Part shown: in pieces, positions 11,495 to 13,541 of the stretch
Layout: each line of letters begins with the position of its first letter
Numbering within the stretch: position 1 is the first letter of the stretch
DNA from: a virus
Taxonomy: Duplodnaviria; Caudoviricetes
DNA length: 24,715 nt
IMG/VR virus record: IMGVR_UViG_3300014169_000024
Location: 1-24,715 of that record
Reading direction: 5' to 3' (one strand)
Position numbers and translations under genes: made by a program
The notes under the pieces: generated by a model
What the model saw: the letters and a program-made list of their open reading frames with translations, nothing else
What the model was told of the DNA's origin: nothing
Databases searched by the model: none

Positions 11495-11680
11495 TTAAAT
11501 TAATCCTTTTATATATCCAAATTTATCGTTCGCCATCGTAAATGGCATCTCGCCGGCCGCGTTAAAGCCATTATATCGCTGAACTGCGTTACGTTCAACC
11601 GATGTATCTGAAAACGGACTGTAGTACGTCATCGTCCACGGATCAATACGTCAATAACATTCAATCCATAAGGATTAGAA

Positions 11681-13541
11681 ATGTCTATTACGACAACTGG
11701 CAATTTAGGCCCATTGATCTTGCAAAGCTTAGCTCCTGCAATGCTCTATGTTCCTACGCCAACAATGAACTATATTACTATTTGCGACAAAGTTTCGATG
11801 CCCTCCAATGGTGGGACGACTTGCCGCTTTATGAGGCCAAGAGCCTTACAACCGCCAACTATCCAGTTGGGAAATTCTGGGATTGACCCCCCAGCACAAG
11901 TGCCACAAAGAGACATCATTGATGCTCAAATGGCGTTTTTCGGTCGATTGCAAAATGCTGATAGTGAGTTACTTGCAGCATAACCTGTGCCGAAATAGTT
12001 GATGGTTTGCGACAGGATGTATCATCAACGAGCAAGTGATCCTAAAATAAAAATTTGACTTGTGGGATCACTGTTTTAATGTTGTAGGTTAGGATGATGA
12101 AGATTAGGACGAATATGAAGAGATTTAAGCTCCAAATAGCAACGATGACGAATAGCAATGTCTGCCTCGGGTACTTTTTGTATACCTTGTTTACCTTGTT
12201 TCGCTTGATTTCTATACGTGCCTCGAATCTCATACATTATTTCAAATTCTCTTCGTTTAATGATGGAATATGGAATCAAAAGAGTGCAGAACTCTCTGAT
12301 TCTATAGATAGGACAATACCATCTCCAAATGGGCCTTCGAATAACACCAGACTTTTTGTCGGTGGGAATGGATCGGATAATTCCGTCTATTCTTTCTTGA
12401 AGCCATGTAAGGAGTTTCATCTCGGTGTTTGTAACCGCGATGTATGTCTGATAGATTGGGCTTTTGCAATCTTTGGCTCTTGTAATGGGCCTAGATATAT
12501 GAATAGACCCTTCTCCATCCATAATTCCTGCGAGGTATCCAATCTCTTGCTCAGAGAGGGTTCTTCCGTAAAAATCAGTCATGATTTACCTATACTGCAT
12601 TATTGTGGAGCACTGTAACATATGCTACATATTACTGCAACCATTAAAGCTATAAATTCCGCTATATGCTGGAAACTCCTAAAGCTATCAGTACCAAAGT
12701 GTGAAAATCTGATAGATGAACAATGGACAATCAGCAGGGAAGGCCCAACTGGGAACCCTCAGAGACTACACGCGGAACACGAAAGTGAAGATATAGTCCG
12801 ATCTTATGTGAGAGCATAAGAGATTAGCAGAAATGCCTAATCCCCTCGCAAGAGGAGTAACAATAATGTCAAGATCAAGAGGGTGTTTTAGCTTGGGTAA
12901 GCGAACGCTTAGCCGTAGCTATGCGTCAGGCTGAGGACTTGATTTTAAGAGATTATATTATAAGCGCAGCTAGCGAAATCAATGCCGGCGGCGGAACTAA
13001 TGGTGACAATCCAACCAATCTCGGTGTATCCGACTTTAGCTTGGTTGCCACTACTTTAGATACCAATAATGCGTATAAATTTACGTCTGGTATCGAAGGA
13101 ATGGATCGCTTTGGTACAGGCCCAGTCCGTTCAGCATACTTTATGCTGTCGTCTACTGAGCTGCAAACCGATATGGATGGCTTAACTGGTTCAGGATTTT
13201 TGTCCCAGTGGAATTATCCTACTAACAGCTCTGCGCTTCCAAGTGAATTTGGATCGGTATTTAACATCCGAATTCTGACCTCATCTGAGGCTCCAGTAGC
13301 TCGCGGTGCGTCTGCTAATAATAACGATGTTTACTATAACACAGTTACAGGAAAGCAGGGCGTTACGCATATAAATCAAGATGGCTTCTCAATGAATCTG
13401 ATTTATAGAGATCCTTACTATTCTGGGATGTTAGCCCAGAATGCGACCTTGGCCGTTAAATTCGCCCAAGCGCAGGCTCTCACCCAAGACACTGCCGTGC
13501 GCAATCTCCTTTGCACACGCTTAAGCAATCTGGGGGTGTAA
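11681..13541 (+). CDS. major capsid protein, N4-gp56-like; spliced join(11681..11944,12012..12043,12869..13541), 322 aa
   Basis: Joined exons total 969 nt in one frame: ..QMAFFG|TGCIINEQVIL|QDQEGVLAWVSERLAVAMRQAEDLILRD..; also EFGSVFNIR and DPYYSG.LAQ motifs. Confidence 0.88.
11945..12011 (+). other. 67-nt coreless group I-like mini-intron
   Basis: Exon ends in U, insert ends in G; GCCGAAA(11989) pairs with TTTCGGT giving a U.G at the junction; CCTGT(11984) pairs with 3' exon ACAGG. Confidence 0.75.
12044..12868 (+). mobile_element. group I self-splicing intron (825 nt)
   Basis: P1 GTGATCCT/GGGATCAC with U.G; P3 TTCCGC/GCGGAA; P4 TGCTG/CAGCA; P7 GACTA/TAGTC in CAGAGACTACA and AAGATATAGTCC; GNRA-capped P8/P9; terminal G. 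Confidence 0.95.
12076..12582 (-). CDS. single-motif LAGLIDADG homing endonuclease, antisense within the intron
   Basis: YLAGIMDGEGSI motif; own promoter TTGCAG(12640)-17-TACAGT. Confidence 0.9.
   Translation of the reverse strand: MTDFYGRTLSEQEIGYLAGIMDGEGSIHISRPITRAKDCKSPIYQTYIAVTNTEMKLLTWLQERIDGIIRSIPTDKKSGVIRRPIWRWYCPIYRIREFCTLLIPYSIIKRREFEIMYEIRGTYRNQAKQGKQGIQKVPEADIAIRHRCYLELKSLHIRPNLHHPNLQH

Follow-up and report, generated by a model that had tools for sequence, protein, structure and literature searches.

A coreless 67-nt insert in a phage major capsid gene, probably a satellite of the group I intron beside it

How can a phage capsid gene be expressed when two inserts interrupt it and only one of them contains a ribozyme core? 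We analysed a 24.7-kb virus record, hereafter the window, in which the major capsid gene occupies positions 11681-13541 and forms a 322-codon frame only once both inserts are removed (Table 1). The preliminary description of this DNA had claimed that the gene contains a complete group I intron and, 32 nt upstream of it, a 67-nt insert that also has to go, and both claims held. Removal of the large intron alone (12044-12868, 825 nt) leaves TAA 11981 in frame and the protein stops at codon 101, while removal of 11945-12011 as well gives the 322-codon frame. Skipping of the intervening 32-nt exon shifts the frame to a stop at codon 110. The identity of the gene comes from its relatives: an insert-free relative (L002) matches phrog_1357, major head protein, at E 1e-15, and the JGI product name for relatives is N4-gp56 family major capsid protein. 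Pfam at E 0.001 gave no name for the capsid exons or for the ORF in the large intron, and a PDB sequence search returned no match. The intron ORF matches LAGLIDADG_1 at E 0.013 only, which does not reach Pfam's cut-off. The orientation of the corresponding endonuclease-like ORF varies in introns at neighbouring sites, where it is sense (L050), antisense as in the window (L022) or absent (L015). A scan for promoters and terminators remained at chance level.

Table 1. Features of the major capsid gene region in the window.
Feature	Position	Strand	Remarks
Exon 1, major capsid gene, codons 1-88	11681..11944	+	last base U11944
Coreless mini-intron (putative satellite), 67 nt	11945..12011	+	frameshifting; in-frame TAA at 11981; terminal G12011
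Optional hairpin in P1 loop of mini-intron	11955..11981	+	pair probabilities 0.88-1.0; 3' end is motif TTGCAGCAT
Internal guide of mini-intron	11984..11995	+	11984-11988 forms P10 with 12012-12016; 11989-11995 forms P1 with 11938-11944
Docking strand of mini-intron	11998..12005	+	partner is exon 2 12022-12029, beside the (extended) P1 of the large intron
Exon 2, 32 nt	12012..12043	+	source of P10, docking partner and 5' strand of host P1
Complete group I intron, 825 nt (proposed host)	12044..12868	+	Rfam Intron_gpI 12592-12820, 74.9 bits; terminal G12868
Host intron helices	P1 12035-12043/12064-12072; P3 12657-12662/12772-12777; P7 12764-12768/12794-12798	+	
Endonuclease-like ORF, 168 aa, in loop between host P1 and core	12076..12582	-	phrog_5046, E 2e-15
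Exon 3, capsid gene	12869..13541	+	84-94% identity to 80 relatives

An assembly artefact, which the preliminary description had named as a threat to its reading, failed as an explanation, since the insert is present with 0 differences in contigs of two sequencing runs. The contig of run X1, possibly the source of the window, covers 11600-13138, and that of run X2, from another study, covers 11915-12168. The junction was established by alignment to intronless homologues: among 66 loci examined, all 63 readable insert-free junctions encode FFG followed by TG, and none encodes FFA. DNA contigs of insert-free relatives (X5, X10) join 11944 to 12012, skipping exactly 67 bases at an unambiguous joint. 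Excision of the insert at the DNA level was ruled out by its lack of repeated ends. Some relatives in runs X3 and X5 have, ahead of exon 2 (window position 12011), a sequence of at least 255 nt that is unlike the mini-introns and has no IMG/VR match; it is possibly a long insert at codon 88.

The insert has the ends and guide of a group I substrate, as had been described. The 5' exon ends in U11944, which pairs with G11989 in P1, the last base is G12011, and one contiguous guide pairs with seven bases of exon 1 and five of exon 2. The terminal G and P10 are supported by the exact DNA joint and by covariation. A 12-bp guide arose by chance in 7 of 20000 shuffled inserts, and a strict scan of the whole window on two strands found the mini-intron and one other match (12 shuffles gave 0.17 per strand). 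The ATGCTG/CAGCAT hairpin reported in the P1 loop is also present (11955-11960 with 11976-11981), and it is absent from family members of 30-47 nt. The group I core, P3 to P9 with the P7 guanosine site, is found in the neighbouring intron and not in the insert: Rfam finds a core only at the position given in Table 1 and a family-specific model (R1) only at 12734-12864, in agreement with the earlier claim that the insert has no P3-P7 core. Since Rfam misses most host cores in this phage capsid-gene family, its blank is weak evidence, and family-specific profiles were therefore built. A profile made from 60 host introns matches none of 114 short satellites, none of 13 long ones and all 117 long hosts. 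Because the core is absent, the insert is not a group I intron, though it is group I substrate-like.

Related inserts are common in this gene. Loci were gathered by protein and pattern scans and then processed with a custom spliced aligner; the first pattern scan returned 116 loci, of which 87 did not belong to this gene and were dropped, and 2 of 93 were dropped from the metagenome scan. This yielded 103 distinct coreless inserts of 32-75 nt at codons 88 (94), 91 (4), 104 (4) and 114 (1), which form 67 clusters at 85% identity. Ninety-three shift the frame, 10 carry an in-frame stop and none reads through. Outside this set are one insert of 87-89 nt (L216, L225, L267), misplaced by the aligner, and three loci identical to the window (L196, L213, L382). 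Because the pattern behind 85 of the 103 required the terminal G and part of the guide, and the aligner also favoured U and G ends, the count of 103/103 with U and G is partly built in; without the U/G bonus, the protein fixes the insert boundary only to within one base. The 18 inserts found without the pattern all allow U and G ends, with a P1 of 6-8 bp and a P10 of 4-9 bp. Across all 103, P1 measures 6-10 bp (partly built into the search) and P10 3-12 bp. The pattern did not impose pairing at wobble positions, where the wobble base of the Phe codon is paired with its guide partner in all 94 site-88 mini-introns (81 C-G, 13 T-A), as is that of the Thr codon, again in 94/94. Four elements are conserved by compensatory change: guide, U.G pair, terminal G and, as described below, docking strand. 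The members of 30-35 nt are reduced to guide, docking strand and linkers.

The site-88 mini-introns are scattered over the capsid-gene tree (36 changes versus 37.8 for shuffled labels), a tree that may carry little signal; this scatter is the one observation here that bears on homing. No endonuclease ORF lies in the 67 nt of the window or was seen in the 94 site-88 inserts, and neither a full-core intron nor an endonuclease-bearing insert was found at codon 88 in any locus. In 34-40 kb of each of five related phage records, there is no convincing mini-intron away from the capsid gene, and in the same stretches intron cores occur only in clusters at that gene. The capsid-gene family has more than 30 insertion sites, and single capsid genes (L131, L132, L111, L129) hold four to six inserts in 322 codons.

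A further intron starts 18-168 nt downstream of 102 of the 103 mini-introns, and the remaining record ends first. In 68 cases the record covers the next intron in full, and a P4-type motif is present in 100/102. In 91 loci fetched by protein only, with kinship ignored as in the other counts, 14 have a mini-intron (13 distinct) and all 14 also have a full intron at codons 89-146; four have such an intron and no short mini-intron (two of these loci hold long satellites), and 73 have neither. A second set of 27 further loci comprises six with mini-intron and host, four with host only (full introns at codons 118-123) and 17 with neither. A mini-intron was found without a downstream host in 0 of the 20 unbiased mini-bearing loci, and the six unbiased loci with upstream introns only contain no mini-intron. 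An IMG/VR pattern search for hosts at codons 96 and 101 without a mini-intron gave no match, with patterns that would catch 8/8 and 9/10 of the mini-bearing loci, respectively. For these near hosts (26-39 nt) the association is two-way; tight linkage is the simplest explanation and could account for it alone, but the mini-intron may also benefit a near host. Hosts of different core types serve the same mini-intron site, and mini-introns also accompany hosts of ~200 nt, which are too short for an ORF.

A third helix, absent from the preliminary description, is predicted beyond P1 and P10: the mini-intron tail pairs with exon bases immediately 5' to the P1 of the next intron. In an unconstrained fold of the window, the mini-intron P1, this docking helix and the host P1 extended to 12030 form side by side (z -2.49, 3/200 shuffles). 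The docking strand covaries with its exon partner, and the tail sequence follows the next intron over 24-168 nt. For distant hosts (54-168 nt, n=27), pairing of the 11 bases after the mini-intron P1 with the exon bordering the host P1 is better than with 95% of other exon windows in 23 cases and than with 90% in 26. At codon 104 the tail varies with the host site, being GGCTAGA or GGCGAGA for hosts at codon 116, AGCATAGCT for 120 and AGCTTGGCG-type for 122. Most linkers measure 1-3 nt, and most gaps to the host P1 are 0-2 nt. A contiguous helix of at least 5 bp lies within the tested range in 91/101; the 10 misses include the window, whose helix is just outside the range, and one misassigned locus. 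In the host-site assignment, L252 is still misassigned. The window class is the poorest fit to the docking rule: a gap of 5 nt separates its helix from the 9-bp host P1 unless weak pairs extend that P1, and in a swap test the class scores -9.6 on the codon-96 host zone and -5.9 on its own. In the same test the codon-120 class scores equally on the codon-122 zone, which overlaps its own, while for the codon-122 class its own zone (-7.8) is narrowly ahead of the codon-101 zone (-7.5). Many mini-introns form a second helix with the start of exon 2, unrelated to host position, and 14 of 15 codon-104 satellites also pair with an upstream intron.

Both inserts must go for the frame, the mini-intron has no core, and a complete intron always follows. 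Together, these results suggest that the insert is, with good probability, a non-autonomous satellite intron of group I type that is spliced by the core of its tethered neighbour, a conclusion in which splicing is read from comparative sequence evidence. One core serving two introns was what the preliminary description had proposed, and the comparison favours it, with a host always downstream and a docking helix that tracks the host. The docking helix would set the base of the mini-intron P1 at the base, or hinge, of the host P1, and either could enter the active site. Swinging into the host active site, the mini-intron P1 would occupy the position of the host's own P1, and cleavage after U11944 would be by free guanosine. 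G12011 would then occupy the G-site while P10 aligns exon 2, the exons would be joined, and the host intron would splice itself last. Since the exon tether lasts only while the host P1 holds exon 2, this model predicts either that the mini-intron is spliced first or that the excised host rebinds. Loss of the large intron would be lethal, as the earlier proposal had held, and the absence of mini-only alleles fits with this.

Could the insert instead be spliced in trans by any free core, that of the excised host or of another intron, with the extra helix only organising the 3' splice site or the order of splicing? This is unlikely, because the mini-intron tail tracks the P1 of the next downstream intron across the full 24-168 nt and introns elsewhere in the gene support no mini-intron, with none in the six upstream-only loci. 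Its appeal is that the docking helix pairs with the exon and not with the ribozyme, that the second helix to exon 2 is independent of host position, that group I cores act in trans in vitro according to passages of PMC2532722 and PMC4094466, and that the upstream pairing of the codon-104 satellites may indicate the use of more than one core. We regard as very improbable a mini-intron that is itself a minimal ribozyme or is removed by a phage or host protein (compare the claim for fungal rDNA introns of 63-75 nt). Sections of PMC3160393 report that a 67-nt intron with P1, P10 and 3'-exon pairing splices in vitro, and the host ORF could be a maturase; yet the 30-35 nt members have nothing beyond guide, docking strand and linkers, none of the 20 unbiased mini-introns stands alone, and the ~200-nt hosts that have no room for an ORF still have mini-introns.

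It is more improbable still that there is no splicing at all, either because ribosomes hop over the insert to give FFATGC or because the allele is a dead gene. Translational bypass of the T4 gene 60 type involves matching take-off and landing codons and a stop right after take-off. In the window, TTT at 12006 is a possible landing codon, and a two-base match lies one codon back in 16 of 99 phase-0 mini-introns; at the junction itself, however, take-off and landing codons match in 0/99 and a stop follows directly in 2/99. The hop had also been named in the preliminary description as a way for its reading to fail, and it is contradicted by the FFG of the 63 insert-free junctions. Compensatory change in guide and docking strand is unexpected for a hop signal or a pseudogene.

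We compared the satellite intron proposed here with known systems. The nearest in size are the small 'degenerate' group I introns of 63-75 nt in fungal nuclear SSU rDNA, PaSSU of Phialophora, which in the passages available of PMC3160393 are said to hold P7, to end in U and to self-splice with long flanks in rRNA, with no neighbouring core invoked. In the features described there, they resemble the phage mini-introns in size, in the U.G pair in P1, in P10 and in the pairing of the intron middle with the 3' exon, and the window's insert shares P1, P10 and 3'-exon pairing with them. It has neither a P7 of its own nor a terminal U, it lies in capsid mRNA and not at SSU rRNA position 1516, and the 30-35 nt members leave no room for P7. 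The phage mini-introns differ further from that account in ending in G, shrinking to 30 nt, sitting in mRNA, tracking a neighbouring intron and having endonuclease-bearing forms.

The chemistry has precedents in engineered systems. As related in part of PMC2532722, Sargueil and Tanner 1993 had a truncated Tetrahymena core splice a separate P1/P10 pseudoknot substrate with free guanosine, in a reaction that needed 10-100 mM magnesium and 55-65 C; the same text covers trans excision-splicing by group I cores, in which a single G can be excised in vitro. Spliceozymes, as described in sections of PMC4094466, are engineered. As far as these accounts go, the likeness is that a core removes a segment other than itself, and the Tetrahymena substrate has its own guide and needs free guanosine. 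The described systems are laboratory constructs, whereas the phage case is natural, exon-helix-tethered, conserved and in an essential gene. For Twort orf142 and the Bastillevirinae, portions of PMC11878797 and PMC3073962 describe phage genes that contain several complete group I introns and undergo exon skipping. Judged from those portions, they too have several introns and short exons in one gene, and a core there can use a splice site that is not its own; however, skipping drops an exon and no coreless intron is mentioned, whereas here the exon must stay and one intron is coreless. Passages of PMC8395846 and PMC8393795 describe no such coreless element, and group III introns appear as non-autonomous elements in those of PMC8393795. 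Searches of open-access main texts turned up no coreless group I intron in nature that relies on a neighbouring core. The mini-intron fails the defining tests of both group I introns and fungal small introns, although the chemistry that it would borrow is already known.

Some mobile group I introns carry LAGLIDADG homing endonucleases, and MITEs and group III introns are non-autonomous elements. The satellites share with these an endonuclease gene in a loop, decay by deletion and dependence on an autonomous partner. They differ in that a satellite loses the ribozyme yet can keep the mobility gene, the reverse of the usual decay. An endonuclease ORF inside the element, absent from the window's mini-intron, is present in 12 coreless relatives at codon 104. 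A scan with the codon-104 guide found 29 loci, 28 of them in the capsid gene, with 26 distinct inserts: 12 of 30-56 nt, two of 93 and 325 nt, and 12 of 946-987 nt. The 12 long inserts hold an ORF of 288-296 aa in the P1 loop, flanked by 54-81 nt on its 5' side and 14-29 nt on its 3' side, and have the guide and docking tail at the 3' end. Two of these ORFs were tested and match LAGLIDADG_1 (E 1.4e-11 and 7e-6). The regions singled out are L079 3029-4000, L292 2813-3765 and ten more. In L320, a 325-nt satellite at codon 104 has a 74-aa ORF where others have the endonuclease gene. Since long coreless forms with the ORF exist beside short ones, a coreless element can carry a mobility gene, with a decay series to the short form. 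The motif TTGCAGCAT that closes the hairpin of the window's mini-intron also opens the endonuclease-bearing satellites at codon 104, which suggests a similar origin; for the motif in site-88 mini-introns, no consistent partner was found in neighbouring introns. The satellite class is probably able to move by itself and likely spreads by homing, judging from these ORFs. Short members would be deletion products of endonuclease-bearing forms, or passengers of the host's homing.

Still smaller inserts occur elsewhere in the gene. Frameshifting inserts of 1-4 bases follow a U (G, AG, TG, TTAG, TAAG) after codon 81 in L342-L353 and L216/L225 (for example L292 near 2744). In an unbiased scan, all 12 contigs with such inserts have a full intron at codon 69 and a codon-104 satellite. 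The 5' exon of the codon-69 intron ends in the same six bases as the codon-81 site, and the guide of this intron can pair with both junctions. By analogy with trans excision-splicing, the 1-4 base inserts are candidate guide-less nano-introns. Alleles with an extra single G after codon 81 lack a G after codon 94 (L292, L314, L330, L333; six contigs, four distinct), and the shifted frame between the two sites hits a stop where read. To yield full-length protein, these alleles would have to lose a G at the first site and gain one at the second, possibly through ribozyme-mediated editing; alternatively, this may be a shared dead allele. A single case of a 2-base insert (TG) after U lies at capsid codon 7 of L088, upstream of introns at codons 20 and 31.

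Taken as a whole, we think it likely, with somewhat less assurance than for the window's insert itself, that these elements represent a natural class of non-autonomous group I introns that have shed the ribozyme and plug their own P1 into a neighbour's core via exon docking, that can carry a homing endonuclease, and that grade to 'introns' of 1-4 bases and perhaps to guided guanosine insertion. If so, one ribozyme core would work as a small machine that splices and edits several substrates within an essential phage mRNA. Arguments for how self-splicing introns gave way to a shared machine that handles passive introns usually start from group II introns and the spliceosome. In the present case a second, passive intron appears to be served in nature by a group I core, and more than 100 sequence variants give design rules. 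The arrangement would also provide a tethering scheme for ribozymes intended to cut selected segments out of mRNA. 'Frameshifted' capsid genes in metagenomes would also be explained. For the phages, satellite introns appear to be general within this group; they would be a further layer of parasitism, one intron exploiting another while carrying its own endonuclease, and the host intron would be locked into the gene.
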